64,000 bases of DNA from Massalongia carnosa. Lineage: Eukaryota. Within the stretch, counting starts at the first letter, position 1. Each line of letters opens with the position of its first letter. The notes beneath the pieces are model-generated. The model worked only from the letters and a program-made list of their open reading frames with translations. It was not told where the DNA came from and ran no database searches. Positions 17,498 to 48,099 of this stretch are shown one piece after another. The translations under genes and the position numbers were made by a program. The stretch covers positions 1,674,001 to 1,738,000 of the forward strand of contig OZ287073.1 in assembly GCA_965645245.1 (NCBI GenBank), written 5' to 3'.

Positions 17498-19315
17498 TCA
17501 GTCCCGGTTAGCGAAAAACATCACAGATAAACCTATTTTTATGCTAAATCACAGAAGAGGGGTATTTTAGATGCCCAGCGAAGGCTGATCGTCCTTTTTA
17601 GAGGATGGATCCATATCACCCCGAAAATGAAGTTATGAAAAGCTTGGTATCAAATTCGAGACGATACTAACATGAAATAAAATCATTGATAACTTGCTTG
17701 AGCGAAGGCTTTGGGCAGCAGGATAAGTAAGGTCAGGCCTCACAAATGGGAAGATATTGCAGTGGTTTCAAATCGAAATACTAATAGCACTCTGGGGTAT
17801 AATACCTTCTAATGGATGTGACTCGTTGAATGCGAGAAGGGCGCGAAAGAGGTTTTGATCTTGAAAGCTCAGGTTGAGGAAGTCGTGATCTGCCATGATG
17901 AATAACTATCGATTAGTCGACGGATTATGGTAATTCCGAGAGAAAAATGTGGCGTAGCAAGATGTGGCGTTGCATATGTACATGATGAATACATCAGCTA
18001 GTCCAGACTTGGTGAGGCCTCTACTCTGCACAGTGAATGAAGCCGAAAGCTTCCGTGCCTGTGAACTACCTCGCTACTTTGTGTTGAAATGGCATGGCAT
18101 TTCCCGCGTCCAGGCAAAGTCTTGTTTTCATCGTTAAGTCCTCAGCACAAACAATGAGTGCCAACATTATCAACTCCCAAACCTTCATCTCTCAGTTCAG
18201 TATAGATATCGCCAAAAAGGGTTGATCTGCTCTGTAATTCTCCACACCTATGCATGCATATGCAGCTTTGGATTCTCGGATCATTTTTTAAAACCACATA
18301 TGAGTGAGTACTCCGTACAGAATACTTACAGGGTCGATGGGTATTGAGCGAAGGAAGAAATAACTAACGCGCCTGACTTTAATAGTTAATCCGATCGCGG
18401 CTGCCACACAGGTACGCACGGAAGTCAGACGTATGCGCGGGTGGCGCGGTGACTTGCCACGTGTTCGCTTACCCTATTCTTCTAATCAGAGATTCTTGTC
18501 CGCGCTTTGCACATGATTGTCTCCTAAACTGTTTGCATGAAATATCTAGGGCTACGATAATCGCATTTCGGGTCTAAGAAATGAGTTGTCTAAATGATTA
18601 GGTATAACTAAGGCAAGCTATAGATCGCTGTCTTTAAAGGTTTATTCATAGAAGTATTTTTTACGAACAAAACATTTATCTAGCTACCAAAGCTACTATG
18701 AAGGCTGCAGAGTTGCTATTTCTCCGTCGAGTAATAGTGCCAGCATGAGGGTGGCCCCACCAAATCCTATCAGACGTTTTCTCTACTCTCAGCGTGTAGA
18801 GAAGTAGTAACTATAGATGGGTCCTGATCTCCTCCTTCAACCACTATACATACCCACTTCAATAGAGACATCAGACTTATTGTATAATCACGAGTCTTGG
18901 ATGGAGTACGAACATCGATGGATCTTTTTTATCTTGAAAGCTTTAAAACATCCACCAGATCTATTACCATCCGGATAAGCTCGATATATTCACCATGTCT
19001 TCTAACTGCATCATCAACAGCAAGCTCTTTTCTACAATTTCAATGGGCGGGAAAAGAAAATTGTTCTAAGTATTGCTGCAAAGACTCAGATGTCGGAACA
19101 CCTGATGGAAACCGCACGAGCTCACAGCCTGCCTTCTAAAGTGCGGTTGTGAAAGACCCACCGCCTCTGCCTGAAGGTATAGCCGAGTTGATCTAGCGCT
19201 CAGTCTTAATCCTGTTATATTCTCTGTAGGAAAGACTCACAGGCGCACAGTGAAATTCAGCACCCCAACCCCGGCGATGAAGTGATAAATTTCGTTAATA
19301 TATTACGATTATCAT

Positions 19316-20138
19316 TCTGGGCCAAAAGCTTACTGATCGACTCAAAAATAGTTCAACCACCAAAGGCACACCCACCATGGTTCGAAGTCTACCCGGCGTG
19401 GCACCGCGAAGCTACCGTTGCGGCAACGGCCCGACACAAGCAGATGCAAACAATCAAAGCACGACAAATGAAGGTCTGGAACGACTCGTGGTGCGCATAT
19501 CAAAATCGCGTCATCGAACCCTCCATAGCACAATCAGTCCCACTGAGCAAAAAACGGCTGAAAATACACACGCAGCTAAAAAAGGCAGAAAGCGCTCTAA
19601 CAACTCAAATCCGCACTGGCAAGATCGGGTTAGCTGACTTCCTCTACAAGCGACGGGTGACCTCCGTCACCTCACCGGCCTGCTCATGTGGCTGGCACAG
19701 ACAAACTCCAGAACATGTAATCATGTTCTGCAGACTTATTGACAATAGAGAACAGATGTTTCGCGCCGCCGGCACGAGTGACTATCAGCAGCTGACCAAA
19801 TCATCAAAAACTCTGAAGATACTAACTGCTTGGCTAATGAAAACAGGCTTATTGAATCAATTCTCACTAGCATCAACATTATTGTAAAATCAACAATAGT
19901 TGAACCTTTCTTTCTTTCTTCTCTTTTCACAAGGCATTACAGTTCCCACACGTCTTTTGCACTGCGTCTCCCGCCCGACGTCGACCCGTAGTCACATCGG
20001 ACGGGTATCAAGGGACATGGTTTTTACACCTGTGAAAGGTTTTCCATGTAACATAACTTAGATAGCTTTGCCCGCATGGGCCGGCCTACGGCCGGTGTCA
20101 TATCGGAGTATGAACACATCATCATCATCATCATCATC
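19316..20138 (+). mobile_element. 5'-truncated non-LTR retrotransposon (Tad1-like LINE): ORF2 C-terminus, 3' UTR, (CAT)n tail, 14-bp TSD
   Basis: ORF ends ...LTTQIRTGKIGLADFL...CSCGWHRQTPEHVIMFC...WLMKTGLLNQFSLA*; (CAT)8 tail; ATTACGATTATCAT at 19302-19315 and 20139-20152. Confidence 0.9.
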
Positions 20139-40887: not shown

Positions 40888-41487
40888 AAAGCAGGTACAT
40901 GCGGGCAAAGTCAATGGCAGCAATATGCGTTATTTATTAGTGAACAATCTTGCTTTTTTGATTTTTTTAAATATCGTAATATTTCATAAAAATCTCTAGA
41001 CAGCCAGCAAGCAAGCTACACACCTAGACCTCAGGACTCTCTTTCTCCAACCGACCAACTAATAAGCGCCGCATCTCCCCCTTTTTTCCCTTTGTACATA
41101 CCTATATATACCGAAACGCTATGTACAGTGGAATGCGTTCCGTCGTGTGAACGAATCTATTCATATAGATACGTAAATATATAGATCCAGGCGTTTCCCT
41201 CTGCGCGGAAGTGAAGAAGAAACACATATGAAAATGAGTAGATAGACAGATACTGTAGATTGATAGATATCAAGTTTTTCTCTAACACCTATTCTTTTCT
41301 TCATTTTTCAATTTTCGTCATCATCGTCATCGGCGCTATTTTCTTTTTTTTCAACAGTAAGTAGCATCATCAACAGCACAACAAAGCATAATCTGAAAGA
41401 GGATTGCGCATCGTTTTCGAATTAACACATCAATTAACCTGACTTTGACAAGGAAAATGAAAATGAAAATGAAAAAATAACGACGAT

Positions 41488-41723
41488 TGTTGAATGTTCA
41501 ACTTCTACCAGCATTGCCTAGCCGATAGATTAGATAATATCAGATCTAATCTAAGCGCATAGAGGCTCGGATAAACTATTATCATCTCGCTTAGCAGAGG
41601 TGACCAAGATAAAAGGAACAGATTGCTCTGCACTCCGTAGCAACTCTTCATCCTTAACATCATGGTCATACAGGCCCCTATCTTTACATAGTCATATAGC
41701 CATAGTCATAGACCTATTCAACA
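41488..41723 (+). repeat. 5' LTR
   Basis: TGTTGAAT...ATTCAACA terminal inverted ends; matches the 3' LTR by eye. Confidence 0.97.
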
Positions 41724-41737
41724 GGTTATGAGCCCGG
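41724..41737 (+). promoter_or_regulatory. Primer-binding site complementary to the anticodon stem-loop of initiator tRNA-Met (half-tRNA priming type)
   Basis: GGTTATGAGCCC(GG) immediately after the LTR is complementary to GGGCUCAUAACC; it lacks the TGG start of a 3'-CCA-type PBS. Confidence 0.85.
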
Positions 41738-42163
41738 AAGGGCGCTATCGATCATACAGGAATCGAAGCAATTCTTATCCGCAGCATCACGATGCAAAAT
41801 CATTAGCTGAGCATCATTATCCTTTCTCGAAAAGAACTAGATGGACAATGCAAAGACTAAATCTCTACTTGTTTACAGACCTGAATCAGGCGGGATTCGC
41901 ACCCGCAAGTCTAGCTAGTTGAACAGCTTCGTGAAAGCACATCATGACAACCTCTCAATCAGATAGAGACGTTTAACAACAACGCCACCTGATCCAGCGT
42001 TCCCTACCTACAAAGGGTTATCAGAAAGAGCATGGAAATCATCTACATTATAAGCAGAGAGGCTCTTTGCCAGACTACAAGCATCAGAAGACATTCTCTT
42101 CATATCAGACCATCAGAATGCTCTCATGCCCGAATATCTGAGAGGCACTCCGGAGGATGACGT

Positions 42164-42530
42164 TGACCCAGAGGCAGACTCCAGTGGACCAATTCCATTG
42201 TTTGACCTCTGCTGCATCACCATCCATTTGACTTTTGACCCAGAGGCAGACTCCAGTGGACTAGCTCCAAGGTTTGACCTCTGCTGCATCATCACTCATT
42301 TGACATTGACCCAGAGACAGACTCCAGTGGACCAGTTCCAATGAGTGACCTCTGCTGCATCATTATTCATTTGACTTTGACCCAGAGACAGAACTCCAGT
42401 GGACCAGTTCCAATGAGTGACCTCTGCTGCATCATCATTCATTTGACTTTGACCCAGAGACAGAACTCCAGTGGACCAGTTCCAACGATTGACCTCTGCT
42501 GCATCATCATTCATTTGACTTTGACCCAGG
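42164..42530 (+). repeat. Tandem array of five 71-72-bp units (starts 42164, 42236, 42307, 42378, 42450, partial at 42522) in the copia leader
   Basis: Unit TGACCCAGAG(G/A)CAGA(A)CTCCAGTGGAC...TCCA...TGACCTCTGCTGCATCA...CATTTGAC. Confidence 0.95.
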
Positions 42531-42597
42531 AACAGACCTTTTCACTGAGTTTTGTTCAAAAACCGCGCAGCGCGGCCTTGACCACTCATGAAACTCT

Positions 42598-42880
42598 GAT
42601 TTCTGCTGAATCATCAATTGACTGACGTTGACCCAAGGGCAGACTTCATTCTGACTTTTGCTGCATCACCACTCAACTTACTTTGACCCAGAGACCGACC
42701 ATCTAAACTATCTTTCAGGGTCCGATTTCTGCTGAATCATCAAATGACTGACGTTGACCCAAGGGCAGACTTCATTCTGACTTTTGCTGCATCACCACTC
42801 AACATACTTTGATCCAGAGACAGACTTCGGAAATTCAGTTCCAAGGTTTGATCCTTGCTGCATCATTCATCAACAGACTT
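42598..42880 (+). repeat. Two-copy 126-bp higher-order repeat derived from the same unit
   Basis: GATTTCTGCTGAATCATCAA..GACTGACGTTGACCCAAGGGCAGACTTCATTCTGACTTTTGCTGCATCACCACTCAAC at 42598 and 42724. Confidence 0.9.
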
Positions 42881-43308
42881 TCTGACTAGTCTACGCGTAT
42901 ACAGATGGAGTAATCAGACTTCAATTAAGCAGAACGCCTCAATCGGGAAATTCGGAATCCGGAAAAAACCTTATTCCATTTAACAGGCCCGGCCTATTAA
43001 ATGGAACGGTCGGACCGTGGTTCCGACAGCCTATCTCCACACCACCAAGTGAAAGTTTCACCATCTGAAGAGAGTTCTTTCATGCGGGTACAAGCGTTGT
43101 GGCAAAGAAAGGAACATCACAGTTTGATGACAAAGGAAAGGAAATGTTTTGTCTATAACTAGATTACATATTCCCAATCTCCTCCATTCATTCCAGTGCA
43201 CATCCTACTCCTGCACCAATCTCAGAAACTTAGATACCTTTCAATCTACAGAAGTTTACTAGAGACCTCTTCTTCATCTTCATCTGACTCTCTTCATCTG
43301 ACTTCATC

Positions 43309-44244
43309 ATGTCTCTTCCTGACATCAACAGTTCTACAGAGAAGCCTCACCTTCTAGAGAACTCGGAACACTACTCAGCATGGGCTAGTTACACCAGAGG
43401 TATTCTGCTGAAGAATAACTGTGACACAGCCATTCTGGAAATCCAACCAGAGATCTCATTGGACTCCATCAGAGAGAGCCTCATCGTATCAGGGTTTACT
43501 CCGGCCAGTCTTACTACCAGCATCCTCGTCAAAGAACTTCGGGATGATAAGAACAGACAGAAAACCGAGATGACCAAGGCTATTGGAATCATCCATGGAC
43601 TGGTTGCACCATGTCACTACAACCTCATCAATAACAAGACCGCTGCCGAGATGTGGGCCATTCTGAAGAATAGATTCCAGGACGTGGCACCAATGAGCAT
43701 CACGGATGTCATCTTGAGGGTTAGTACGAAAAAGATGAGAGACTTCGACACAGTCAGTCAATACTGTTCAGAGTATGACGGTGCCTTCAATCAGATCAAG
43801 GGCATGTTGATCGAAGAGGTCAAGGTGAACGTCGACTCCATAGAATTTGTACTTCAGGGAATGCTGCTTGGTAACTGCACAGACAAGTATGACCCGCTCA
43901 TTGCACAACTCCGCAGGGACTGGACGCACGACACCACAAACCTTTCGGAAACAACAAAAATCCTCATAGCCTATGCACGAAACCTAACTGTCAAGGCTTT
44001 TCACACTGGCGCTTCCAACAGAGGTAGAGCACCTATCGGAAGTTGCACCGTTCCAGAGTGTGTAAATAGGAACAGAACACGACATTGGCCAGATGAGTGT
44101 TTCCAGAAATTCCCCCATCTAAAACGGGCGAGAGGAGACACGGCTGAATCAGGGAGGGTCAAGAGACAAAAGAACTCCAAGCCAGAAGTCACCACGTCAA
44201 CTCCAGGCACCACAGTCACTACAACTCCCACAGTGAGCAGTTGA
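43309..44244 (+). CDS. Copia Gag (311 aa) with variant zinc knuckle
   Basis: KTAAEMWAILKNRF capsid-like motif; CTVPECVNRNRTRHWPDEC knuckle; ends in TGA 44242-44244. Confidence 0.9.
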   Translation: MSLPDINSSTEKPHLLENSEHYSAWASYTRGILLKNNCDTAILEIQPEISLDSIRESLIVSGFTPASLTTSILVKELRDDKNRQKTEMTKAIGIIHGLVAPCHYNLINNKTAAEMWAILKNRFQDVAPMSITDVILRVSTKKMRDFDTVSQYCSEYDGAFNQIKGMLIEEVKVNVDSIEFVLQGMLLGNCTDKYDPLIAQLRRDWTHDTTNLSETTKILIAYARNLTVKAFHTGASNRGRAPIGSCTVPECVNRNRTRHWPDECFQKFPHLKRARGDTAESGRVKRQKNSKPEVTTSTPGTTVTTTPTVSS

Positions 44245-47200
44245 CTCACAGTGGTCATGACTACCACTCTACAGAAGGTCATGACCATCAACCATCTCAA
44301 CAGAGACACCTGGCTACTAGACAGCGCAGCGGACATGCACGTATGCAATCACAGGCCGTCGTTCATCAACTACATAACACGCTCCACAGGTCTGGCAGGA
44401 TCTACATCAGATGGCACGTCTCCAGGGAGGGGAATGATCCGGAAAACGTTGGCACTACAGGACGACTCACCCTCGTCAGTGTTAATACTGAACAACGTTC
44501 TTTTCATTCCACAGTGTCCAGTGAACCTCGTCAGTCTGGCACTACTCAACCAAAACAACATCTACTATGACAATGTTAACTGGACCCTATTCAACGGGAT
44601 TAGTCAGAACATCATAGGCTATGTGCCAAGAGTCAATACAAACTTTGTACTAAAGACCTTGGACGCCCCAGACGTGGCTACACATCTTATGCAGACAGAT
44701 GAGAGCACCTTTCAGTGGCCGAACACATCAGTCTACCACACGTCAGCCATAACAGACCTGTCAACATGGCATGCGCGTCTTGGTCATTTAAACCTGATCA
44801 CCTGCCGAGCTTTTCTGAAAAGACTCGATGTGTCGTACTCAGACAACGTGAACAAAGATTGGTACTGTTCATCCTGTGAACTCGGAAAGGCCACTAAGAT
44901 ATACAACCGGACACCTCAGGAGAGAGCAACAGGCATCTTTCAAAAGGTTCATTCCGATCTAGTAGGACCCATCAAACCAGCAGGACTTCTTGAAGAACAG
45001 TACTTCTTTACCTTCACCTACGATGCCAGCAGATACACTCATGTGTATACAGGCATCAAGAAGAGCGAATGGTTTGATCATCTGTTGACATACTACAGTC
45101 TAGCTCAGAACAAGACAGGAAAGAGCAAGCCAATAAACATCTTTCGAACTGATTTCGGCACAGAACTTCGAAGTCTGAAATCGGATGATTGGTTCCTGAA
45201 AGAAGGGATAACGTTTGAACCCTCCGCACCGTATTCACAGGAACAAAACGGTGTGTCTGAACGAACAGGCAGAACTATCATGGACATGACTAGATGTACC
45301 ATCATTGCAGGAGGCATTCCGGACTACCTATGGACAGAGGTGGTTTTAGCTATGGTTCACACAAAAAACGTCAGACCTACAAATGCTTTATCCGGAAAGA
45401 CCCCATTTGAAATTTACGAGTCAAAGTCACCTCCTCTGAATCATCTGCGAGTGTTGGGATCAACCGTGTATGTCCTCATTCATGAGGAAGAACGCAAAGG
45501 CGCCAACAGCAAATCGGCCAAATTTCTACCTCGGGCCCAACGCGGAGTCTTGTGTGGGTACGATGGATGCACAATCTATCGAGTCTTTCTGGAAAAGGAC
45601 TACAGGGTCATCAGGGTCAAAGATCTGCGCATTCACGAAGACGCCATCTCCAAAGACCAGACCAACGTTCCTACATACGAGGCCATCATGACTCCCGATA
45701 CAGTCACTCCATCAAAATCAACAGTCATTTCATCCCCCACAACGATTCCAAAACGTGGACGTGGCAGACCCAGGAAGCATGCTCAGATAGAACACGCATT
45801 GTCTCTTCTATCAGACACAGCTTTAGATGAACCCAATCATACTCCTACATACGATGACATAGACACAGAGGATCCACTCGTTCTTCTTGCCAGAACCTTG
45901 GAAAAGGAAGGATCATCAGGATTGGAAGACTATGACGCACTGTCTCAACTCGACATAGCTGAACCTCAGACATACCATCAAGCTATGAAAGGTCCACATT
46001 CCGAAAGCTGGAGTCGTTCCATGGACAATGAACACAACAGTCTTCTCGAGAACGAAACATGGACTCTTGTCAGAACCGAGGATATGGAGCCCAATCATAC
46101 TGCTCTCAGTGGAAAATGGGTATACAAACTGAAACGAGACGTCAATGGAAATATCACACGGTACAAATCCAGATGGGTGGTGAAAGGCTATCTCCAGCAG
46201 TACGGAGTAGATTTCGAACAGACCTATGCCTCCGTAGTGAAACCAATGGCCTTCCGATTATTGTTTGCCATAGCAGCTCATCATGACTTGGACATCGAAC
46301 AGCTTGATGTCGTCACAGCATTCTTGTATGGGGTAATAGATCAATTGATTTACGTCCAAATGCCCAAAGGATATGAAAAAGCGGGCATGATCTGCAAACT
46401 GAACAAGGCTCTCTATGGCCTGAAACAATCTCCACGCCTATGGTATGAAAGGCTATCCGAATTTCTACTTACCAAGCTGGGTCTGTCCAAACTTCACGCA
46501 GATCATAGTATCTTCTCCTCTTCGGCAGGAATAAGAGGTCCAATTGTTACCTCCTTCGTTGATGATCTGAACATCATAGGTCCAAAGGGATCTCCTATGA
46601 TATCTGAAGTCAAGAAACAACTGAACATTGCGTTCAAGATGGTGGACATGGGCCCAATCAGTCATTATCTAGGCCTAAAGGTAGAACGAAATCGCGATAA
46701 CAGAACAATCAAACTATCTCAATCTACCTACATCGAAAAGGTCCTGGAGAAGTTTCATATGCAGAACGCGAAAACTACCACCACCCCAATGAAAGAAGGC
46801 AGTCTATTCAGAAATGAATCCCAGGCCTCAGAATCAGACATTAAACAGTATCAAGCAATCGTCGGCTCCATCATGTTTGCTATGATAGAAACAAGGCCTG
46901 ACATTGCCTACGCGACCTCAGTGGTCAGCCGACATGCCAAAAATCCTGGCAAATCACACATGGAGGCAGCCAAGCAGATTCTCAGATATCTCAGTGCAAC
47001 CAGAGACAGAGGCATTACCTTTGGTGGCGGAGATTTGTCTATACAGGGCTATTCCGATTCTGATTGGGCCGGTGACAAGGAAGACCGCAAGTCCACCTCC
47101 GGATACGTCTTCATGCTGAACAATGGACCAATCAGTTGGGCCTCAAAAAGACAGAAAACCGTTGCCCTCTCATCCACAGAAGCCGAATATATGGCACTCA

Positions 47201-47547
47201 CCTTAGCTGCTAAGGAGACCATATGGATACGCTTATTGATGACAGAACTCGGGCTGATGCAGGATGATGCTACTCCGACAGTGAATGTACTTGAAAGGGA
47301 AGGCGCTATAGCATTGAAAGGTGATAATCAGAGTGCTATAGCACTGGCCAATAATCCCGTCTTACATTCAAGGACTAAGCACATCGACATTCAGCATCAC
47401 TTCATACGGAATGAGGTCACAGAGGGTCGAATAGACCTTACCTATGTTTCAACAGAACACATGGTAGCGGACGGACTGACCAAACCGCTTACCCACGTCA
47501 AATTCTTCTCCTTCATCAGACAACTTCACATGAATTCATCTAGTTGA
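44245..47547 (+). CDS. Copia Pol (protease-integrase-RT-RNase H), in frame with gag
   Basis: WLLDSAA protease; WHARLGH..CSSC, HSDLVGP, RTDFGTE, QNGVSER integrase; KWVYK, YKSRWVVKG, LYGLKQSPR, FVDD RT; YSDSDWAG, SSTEAEY, DNQSA, MVADGLTK RNase H. Confidence 0.97.
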   Translation, partial: LTVVMTTTLQKVMTINHLNRDTWLLDSAADMHVCNHRPSFINYITRSTGLAGSTSDGTSPGRGMIRKTLALQDDSPSSVLILNNVLFIPQCPVNLVSLALLNQNNIYYDNVNWTLFNGISQNIIGYVPRVNTNFVLKTLDAPDVATHLMQTDESTFQWPNTSVYHTSAITDLSTWHARLGHLNLITCRAFLKRLDVSYSDNVNKDWYCSSCELGKATKIYNRTPQERATGIFQKVHSDLVGPIKPAGLLEEQYFFTFTYDASRYTHVYTGIKKSEWFDHLLTYYSLAQNKTGKSKPINIFRTDFGTELRSLKSDDWFLKEGITFEPSAPYSQEQNGVSERTGRTIMDMTRCTIIAGGIPDYLWTEVVLAMVHTKNVRPTNALSGKTPFEIYESKSPPLNHLRVLGSTVYVLIHEEERKGANSKSAKFLPRAQRGVLCGYDGCTIYRVFLEKDYRVIRVKDLRIHEDAISKDQTNVPTYEAIMTPDTVTPSKSTVISSPTTIPKRGRGRPRKHAQIEHALSLLSDTALDEPNHTPTYDDIDTEDPLVLLARTLEKEGSSGLEDYDALSQLDIAEPQTYHQAMKGPHSESWSRSMDNEHNSLLENETWTLVRTEDMEPNHTALSGKWVYKLKRDVNGNITRYKSRWVVKGYLQQYGVDFEQTYASVVKPMAFRLLFAIAAHHDLDIEQLDVVTAFLYGVIDQLIYVQMPKGYEKAGMICKLNKALYGLKQSPRLWYERLSEFLLTKLGLSKLHADHSIFSSSAGIRGPIVTSFVDDLNIIGPKGSPMISEVKKQLNIAFKMVDMGPISHYLGLKVERNRDNRTIKLSQSTYIEKVLEKFHMQNAKTTTTPMKEGSLFRNESQASESDIKQYQAIVGSIMFAMIETRPDIAYATSVVSRHAKNPGKSHMEAAKQILRYLSATRDRGITFGGGDLSIQGYSDSDWAGDKEDRKSTSGYVFMLNNGPISWASKRQKTVALSSTEAEYMALTLAAKETIWIRLLMTELGLMQDDATPTVNVLEREGAIALKGDNQSAIALANNPVLHSRTKHIDIQHHFIRNEVTEGRIDLTYVSTEHMVADGLTKPLTHVKFFSFIRQLHMNSSS

Positions 47548-47600
47548 GTTCACACCGCGCAGCGCGGTTTTGATCATCAGAACAAGTACTGGCAGAACTT

Positions 47601-47609
47601 GAGGGAGGG
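47601..47609 (+). promoter_or_regulatory. Polypurine tract
   Basis: GAGGGAGGG directly before the 3' LTR. Confidence 0.9.
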
Positions 47610-47845
47610 TGTTGAATGTTCAACTTCTACCAGCATTGCCTAGCCGATAGATTAGATAATATCAGATCTAATCTAAGCGCATAGAGGCTCGGATAAACTA
47701 TTATCATCTCGCTTAGCAGAGGTGACCAAGATAAAAGGAACAGATTGCTCTGCACTCCGTAGCAACTCTTCATCCTTAACATCATGGTCATACAGGCCCC
47801 TATCTTTACATAGTCATATAGCCATAGTCATAGACCTATTCAACA
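47610..47845 (+). repeat. 3' LTR
   Basis: Matches the 5' LTR; followed by TSD ACGAT. Confidence 0.97.
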
Positions 47846-48099
47846 ACGATAGATGCTCGTAACGTTTATCTGACTACACCCCGTTTGCAAAATGGTGTGC
47901 CGAACTTTGAACCCCGAAACTGCGCGGTAAAAATAAAAAAAATAAGCGACAGAATTGGACCACACACCAGAATTTGGTGCAGTAGCTAATGGCCCTCCTC
48001 CCCTTCACACCGCCTTTTGCAGTCTATAGGATCGTACGGTTAATGATATCCTTTTGATTGTCGTTTGTATGAACTTTCAACGTAGTTATTCCAGTCATC

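Follow-up and report, generated by a model that had tools for sequence, protein, structure and literature searches.

The window, a stretch of 64,000 nt from Massalongia carnosa, a lichen-forming ascomycete (Lecanoromycete), contains a complete Ty1/copia element on the + strand at 41488–47845. Two identical direct LTRs of 236 nt with TG...CA ends (41488–41723 and 47610–47845; 100% identity) delimit it, and a target-site duplication, ACGAT, lies on either side (41483–41487 and 47846–47850). The primer-binding site (41724–41737) is a 14-nt match complementary to positions 26–39, in the anticodon arm, of the host tRNA-Met(CAT), and the polypurine tract GAGGGAGGG (47601–47609) directly precedes the 3′ LTR. 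Tandem repeats occupy part of the 1.6-kb leader (42178–42846), five of 72 nt and two of 126 nt, and both kinds have a CTGCTGCATCATCA-like core in common. Gag (43309–44244), 311 aa from a start codon inferred from alignment, ends in ...PTVSS-TGA and matches Retrotran_gag_2 (PF14223, E 2.9e-07). Pol (44245–47547, 1100 codons) follows with protease, integrase region, reverse transcriptase and RNase H, that is in the order gag-PR-IN-RT-RH typical of Ty1/copia, and matches Pol_BBD, gag_pre-integrs, SH3_retrovirus and the reverse transcriptase model RVT_2; the catalytic Asp codon of the protease is at 44320–44322 and the RNase H end motif ADGLTK is seen in the translation. The integrase core model rve has no match in this protein at E 0.001 and is listed for close relatives, e.g. 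P0013.

Just 3′ of the element, long inverted repeats (47880–48032/52120–52259 and 50084–50151/51595–51662; 4.1–4.3 kb apart) flank open frames and probably belong to a DNA transposon. A neighbouring helicase gene has its best named match, at 88%, in Pseudocyphellaria, and an open frame at 19210–19887 presumably resembles the 3′ end of a non-LTR retrotransposon protein. Two fungal copia clades were considered for the element and rejected: GalEa, in which a conserved hairpin site replaces the primer-binding site and a single large ORF is present (PMC5445492), does not accommodate a tRNA-Met primer-binding site and a split frame, and FunCo1 has the primer-binding site ATTAAGAGTCT, of tRNA-Lys, where the element uses tRNA-Met (PMC5445492).

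An open frame of 318 codons, 311 of them from the Met at 43309, is closed by TGA at 44242–44244, and the same frame is then open for 1100 codons, to 47547. The original prediction, that gag ends at this TGA and that pol goes on in frame for ~1100 codons, is borne out, and all of its coordinates proved correct on re-reading of the sequence. Public sequencing data show that the stop did not arise in assembly. In four DNA runs, drawn from at most three samples and two studies (possibly including the source), 44242–44244 has no alternative letter at a 5% threshold, and in three of the four the listed contig spans the stop without difference. Among RNA data sets, none was listed with the junction, a result that has no bearing on expression.

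A genome scan with a codon-free junction pattern found 91 sites, reduced to 87 once four unrelated ones were dropped. They are distributed over five subfamilies, A–E, labels assigned in this analysis. TGA occupies the junction in 79 of the 87, namely 34/36 in A (the subfamily of the window), 5/8 in B, 7/9 in C, 17/18 in D and 16/16 in E; since the subfamilies are mutually related and come from one genome, these counts amount to five data points, not 87. The other eight codons are TCA (2), TGT (3) and TGG (3). A sister family, G, gave 39 matches, one of them unrelated and dropped, and its junction, AGT-TGA-CAA-CCA, has the stop at all 38 sites, one being altered before the stop and one after it. 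The stop-bearing copies thus total 117 in six families. Over 333 Pol residues, identity to A is 70–77% for B–E and 52% for G. In the tree, A–E are supported at 100/100 and the G group at 99/98; their order is unsupported, G and A–E forming an open fork. The distance from the stop to the catalytic Asp of the protease is fixed, at 25 codons in A–E and 17 in G. Family G, too, contains repeats in its leader, and long open frames lie 5′ of its gag.

It is this copy series, rather than the identity of the LTRs, that supports a fixed and functional stop; the original prediction had reached the same view from the LTRs, an argument that is weak when taken alone. One in-frame gag/pol stop is inherited across copies, as in the layout of Tca2, VdLTRE5 and Tj1, and the series indicates that it is an inherited and functional feature of a copia clade, not decay. 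That it would be a decay mutation in a single-frame element copied in trans is scarcely credible: sense codons do occur in eight copies, and single-frame copia families do exist in the same genome (L060, with open frames of 1460–1498 aa), but six families with up to ~50% divergence have the same stop in the same position, nucleotide conservation peaks around it, and the sense codons are of three kinds and confined to a minority of copies. All five sense-codon copies examined are broken elsewhere or short, four of them with a break either upstream of the junction or no more than 575 codons downstream, and the fifth with a frame of 1154 codons, below full length. Measured against an actual reference copy, 62 copies diverge at 0.8–3.1% of sites, which is enough to explain eight altered stop codons. 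A sense codon in sister copies, named beforehand as evidence against a functional stop, is found in 2/36 of them, a proportion that matches background drift. Three B copies (G000 C2:3446421, C11:325564 and C16:1087850) have in common TGT at the stop and ATG at codon +5, where five TGA copies have ACG; they apparently form a stop-less lineage that was copied, probably in trans. Many near-identical copies of subfamily A have short pol frames (e.g. 168 codons in several), reflecting either shared defects or assembly indels.

The DNA around the stop is constrained beyond its coding content. When one copy from each of A–E is aligned by codon (390 codons), third-position identity is 0.95 in three windows over codons −3 to +6, the top of the alignment, versus 0.46 overall, and synonymous identity is likewise raised, 0.95 versus 0.51. 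The context AGT-TGA-CTC-ACA (44239–44250), which includes a UGA-CU motif, consists of the same codons in 5/5 subfamily representatives; with GTC, these codons are invariant, though Ser, Leu, Thr and Val each have several. Exceptions are G at +4 in 3/18 D copies and GGT at −1 in 5/36 A copies. Both forms of the junction, UGA-CUC in A–E and UGA-CAA-CCA (CARYYA) in G, are contexts permissive for readthrough: UGA-CU alone suffices in the fungus Ustilago maydis (PMC4207609), and the UAG-CAR-YYA motif as well as stems after spacers of 7–9 nt are viral readthrough signals (PMC3159437).

Further downstream, codons +7 to +11, which form the loop of the hairpin described below, display 21 synonymous and 11 non-synonymous differences, compared with 156 and 75 in the protease; the counts are small, pairwise and not independent. 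These codons change like protein and therefore appear to be translated in the pol frame. This bears on the idea that Pol has a start of its own downstream of the stop, at the AUG of codon +5 or +13, used either through reinitiation or on a shorter pol transcript. An in-frame ATG at +13 (44281–44283) is present in 5/5 A–E representatives, seven database relatives have a Met 9–11 residues before the protease Trp, and a weak junction promoter is reported for Tca2 (PMC2194720). Against a separate start stand the codons just mentioned, which lie 5′ of ATG +13, and family G, which has the same AGT-TGA-C stop with Leu at the position of ATG +13 and no in-frame AUG before the catalytic Asp. The ATG at +5 (44257–44259), found in A, C, D and E and missing from G, is ACG in five TGA copies of B, a weak point since the pol frames of those copies are all broken. 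In addition, hydrophobic stretches containing Met also precede the protease in single-frame copias, and Pol made apart from Gag would have to reach the particle by a separate route, a textbook point also made in PMC2194720. Separate synthesis of Pol is thus considered unlikely.

Removal of the stop by splicing meets the same difficulty, as codons +7 to +11 would lie inside the putative intron and yet evolve as protein. The candidate is a minor 42-nt in-frame intron from GTGAGC at 44233 to CAG at 44274. Its donor-like hexamer recurs at −9 in A, C, D and E, an in-frame CAG is found at codon +10 in A, B, C and E, and TTGAC and CTCAC at the junction have what we take to be a resemblance to a branch site. 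Nevertheless, B and G have no donor, D has CAA at +10, and the phases of the first AG differ (1, 1, 2, 0, 0 and 0 in A, B, C, D, E and G); no acceptor or donor common to all six families was found. No spliced joint shows up in the four public runs, all of them DNA and so uninformative on splicing. The intron was rejected on the ground that the look-alikes of A are not common to the other families, which leaves splicing a poor prospect.

A stem-loop follows the stop (44251–44288). As predicted originally, its arms at 44251–44262 and 44277–44288 can form 12 pairs, the two end pairs being G-U, around a 14-nt loop; what is kept in the other copies is only a 9-bp core (44253–44261/44278–44286) after an 8-nt spacer. 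RNAfold finds the full stem (z −2.33 for 101 nt; 4/200 shuffles as good), and the consensus fold of 12 aligned copies has the 9-bp stem 8 nt 3′ of the stop, the outer two pairs being unpaired in 8 and 6 of the 12. By folding energy, the 50-nt segment 3′ of the stop ranks 1, 2, 1, 1 and 2 of 84 in A–E, where z lies between −2.5 and −3.8. The corresponding segment of G comes sixth by energy and 36th by z, and that of H is 75/79. Among the 12 stem pairs, three are invariant, six vary on one side and still pair (Watson–Crick or G-U) and three differ by mismatches only. Paired cells make up 83%, versus 15–42% for slid partners. No two-sided compensatory change occurs among the 12 pairs in the 12 aligned copies, and covariation there does not exceed that of column shuffles (500/500). 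The stem arms also code for a conserved Val-Met. Of the two properties that an alignment of copies had been expected to reveal, the conserved UGA is therefore present (79/87 in A–E, 38/38 in G), and covariation of the stem on both sides is not. Collectively, the sequences point to a 9-bp core maintained in all five subfamilies, a candidate signal. An additional pairing proposed between GTTGA, at the stop, and TCAAC (44288–44292) did not hold, as TCAAC overlaps the last base of the stem and is found in one of five subfamily representatives, the other four having TGAC.

The hairpin may derive from a repeat. Two units of 24 nt, or eight codons (44245–44292), each contain the self-complementary octamer GTCATGAC, and the two stem arms are copies of this palindrome 24 nt apart. 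The units are identical to each other at 12–16/24 positions in A–E and at 5/24 in G, which has one unit; an 8-residue gap appears at the duplicated unit in G and in the database proteins P0022 and P0027, and the A–E hairpin as such is absent from G. We infer that a tandem 24-nt duplication probably created the hairpin. It is tempting to propose that the clade exchanged one readthrough signal for another, UGA-CARYYA on one side and UGA-CU with a hairpin derived from the palindrome duplication on the other, in either direction, a tentative scenario with rather less than even odds. In the G junction at L057:3301–3423, CAACCA after the stop can pair with TGGTTG ~45 nt on, placing the stop at the base of a long stem.

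A Gag profile search of protein databases gave 372 cluster representatives; among the 150 listed, none exceeds 377 aa and none is a full Gag-Pol fusion. A Cys/His knuckle, recognized with a pattern of our own, is present in 43 of these 150: nine proteins end too early, 28 end 25–70 residues after the knuckle, five pass the junction and one runs into unrelated sequence. Among the 28, the last residue is Ser in 19, Cys in two and another in seven. All of these relatives are read as protein; the end of a contig may have cut some of them short, and two or more come from the query set or from families of the window's genome. A Pol search gave 54 matches of 605–1925 aa, and 17 of the 19 best (P0010–P0028) start after the junction; the two others, P0022 and P0027, pass it. 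In metagenomes (JGI), only distant copias were found, with 35% identity at best (80 loci, 25 of them with the protease pattern), and a search of viral contigs gave no matches. Four metagenome copias (L081–L084, 28–29% identity) have TGA-CTAG, a leaky stop context, 29–35 codons before the protease. The lichen genome also has another gag-stop-pol junction, distinct from the first, in a distant copia family: in 3/3 copies (L079, L080 and L174; G000 C12:256778, C2:160366 and C20:560645), CAA-TAG-GGA lies 38 codons upstream of the protease Asp; a 425-codon open frame precedes the TAG in L079, and no strong hairpin is seen at the junction of these three.

Trp takes the place of the stop in all seven relatives that extend across the junction, five from the Gag search and two from the Pol search. 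One corresponds to a D copy with genomic TGG; in the other six the codon may be TGG, or TGA read under code 4. These residues invite an explanation by A-to-I mRNA editing, by which some transcripts would have UGI, decoded as Trp, in place of UGA, with a hairpin loop as substrate. The Gag/Gag-Pol switch would then link Pol synthesis to a host editing stage, and the TGG copies and the seven Trp proteins would be reverse-transcribed traces. The stop does lie in the loop of a weak hairpin, GTGAG/CTCAC (44233–44249), with four consensus pairs, three of them invariant and one broken in B; the splice-donor-like GTGAGC at 44233 is within it. Fungal editing favours loops (PMC11156358), and three TGG copies occur in two subfamilies where ~0.3 would be expected from an A>G rate of 0.35%. 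On the other hand, fungal editing strongly favours U before the A, here preceded by G, and corrects UAG; it went undetected in the tested Eurotiomycete and Leotiomycete, and Lecanoromycetes are unmentioned in the accessible text (PMC11156358). TGG is found in 0/38 G copies, and with only 1/7 Trp proteins traced to DNA, the rest may be TGA under code 4. Editing of the stop is accordingly very improbable, and a switch tied to the editing stage of the host is a long shot.

Programmed UGA readthrough that sets the ratio of Gag to Gag-Pol is the best explanation, with a probability of about 0.7 as judged from sequence comparison, and it fits all six families. Most ribosomes would terminate at the UGA and release the 311-aa Gag, and a minority would insert a residue and go on to a Gag-Pol of ~1412 aa, which would be packaged and then cut by its own protease. 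The local context GU-UGA-CU would determine how leaky the stop is, and the hairpin, 8 nt further on, would probably raise the level; given readthrough, the odds that the stem acts in it are slightly better than even. Several observations count against readthrough. The stem varies without two-sided compensation and its arms double as code for Val-Met, the three D copies with UGA-G instead of UGA-C keep long open pol frames, and eight copies carry a sense codon. Moreover, 300 nt of the junction of Tca2, the sole tested fungal copia, produced no readthrough in S. cerevisiae (PMC2194720).

How fungal copias pass a gag UGA thus has Tca2 as its only tested case, negative in the reporter. In the lichen clade, compact, canonical-looking signals exist in two forms mapped by natural variation, so the mechanism is directly testable there. 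There is also a consequence for annotation, as gag-stop-pol elements are taken for defective copies, and gene callers cut them in two or misplace their starts. Gao et al. (2003) is reportedly the main survey of gag-pol recoding. A literature search that covered few subscription papers found no description of this lichen copia clade, and the main text of a preprint on Peltigerales transposons mentions neither readthrough nor stop codon nor gag. The layout as such is already in print, in Tca2, VdLTRE5 and Tj1, and is of an uncommon kind; the original prediction had made it rarer than the printed record, which, besides Tca2, includes VdLTRE5 and Tj1/Tosmo/Tcry.

Compared by layout, Tca2 (pCal), the Ty1/copia element of Candida albicans, resembles the element of the window as a fungal copia with gag-UGA-pol in one frame, a gag of similar size (972 bp; PMC7175516) and a predicted RNA structure 8 nt after the stop, but has a purine-rich spacer and a predicted pseudoknot where UGA-CU and a simple hairpin are found here (PMC2194720). 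VdLTRE5 of Verticillium dahliae, likewise compared by layout, is a Ty1/copia element of a filamentous ascomycete with gag and pol split by UGA and a leaky stop proposed; it is known from two copies, without CARYYA and with no signal identified in the accessible text (PMC3441728), whereas here 117 copies bear the stop, one family having CARYYA and five UGA-CU with a hairpin. In fission yeasts, Tj1, Tosmo1-3 and Tcry1 share an in-frame TGA with CT (Leu) directly after it, and Tj1 activity requires the stop; these are Ty3/gypsy elements, with GAA before the stop instead of AGT and no hairpin reported in the accessible text (PMC4600332, 10.1101/2022.12.06.519325). Viral readthrough is divided into type I (UAG-CAR-YYA), type II (UGA-CUA/CGG with a 3′ stem) and type III (MuLV, UAG-G with a pseudoknot) (PMC3159437). 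The MuLV type, with its purine-rich 8-nt spacer, was rejected for an element with UGA-C and the spacer CTCACAGT. Family G has the type I hexamer CAACCA, but joined to UGA, and A–E resemble type II in UGA-CU, the 8-nt spacer and the stem, but differ in CUC for CUA, in conservation over ~45 nt rather than 100–200 and in the lack of compensatory changes (PMC3159437). What is new relative to all these systems is a clade-wide natural series with two alternative readthrough signals.
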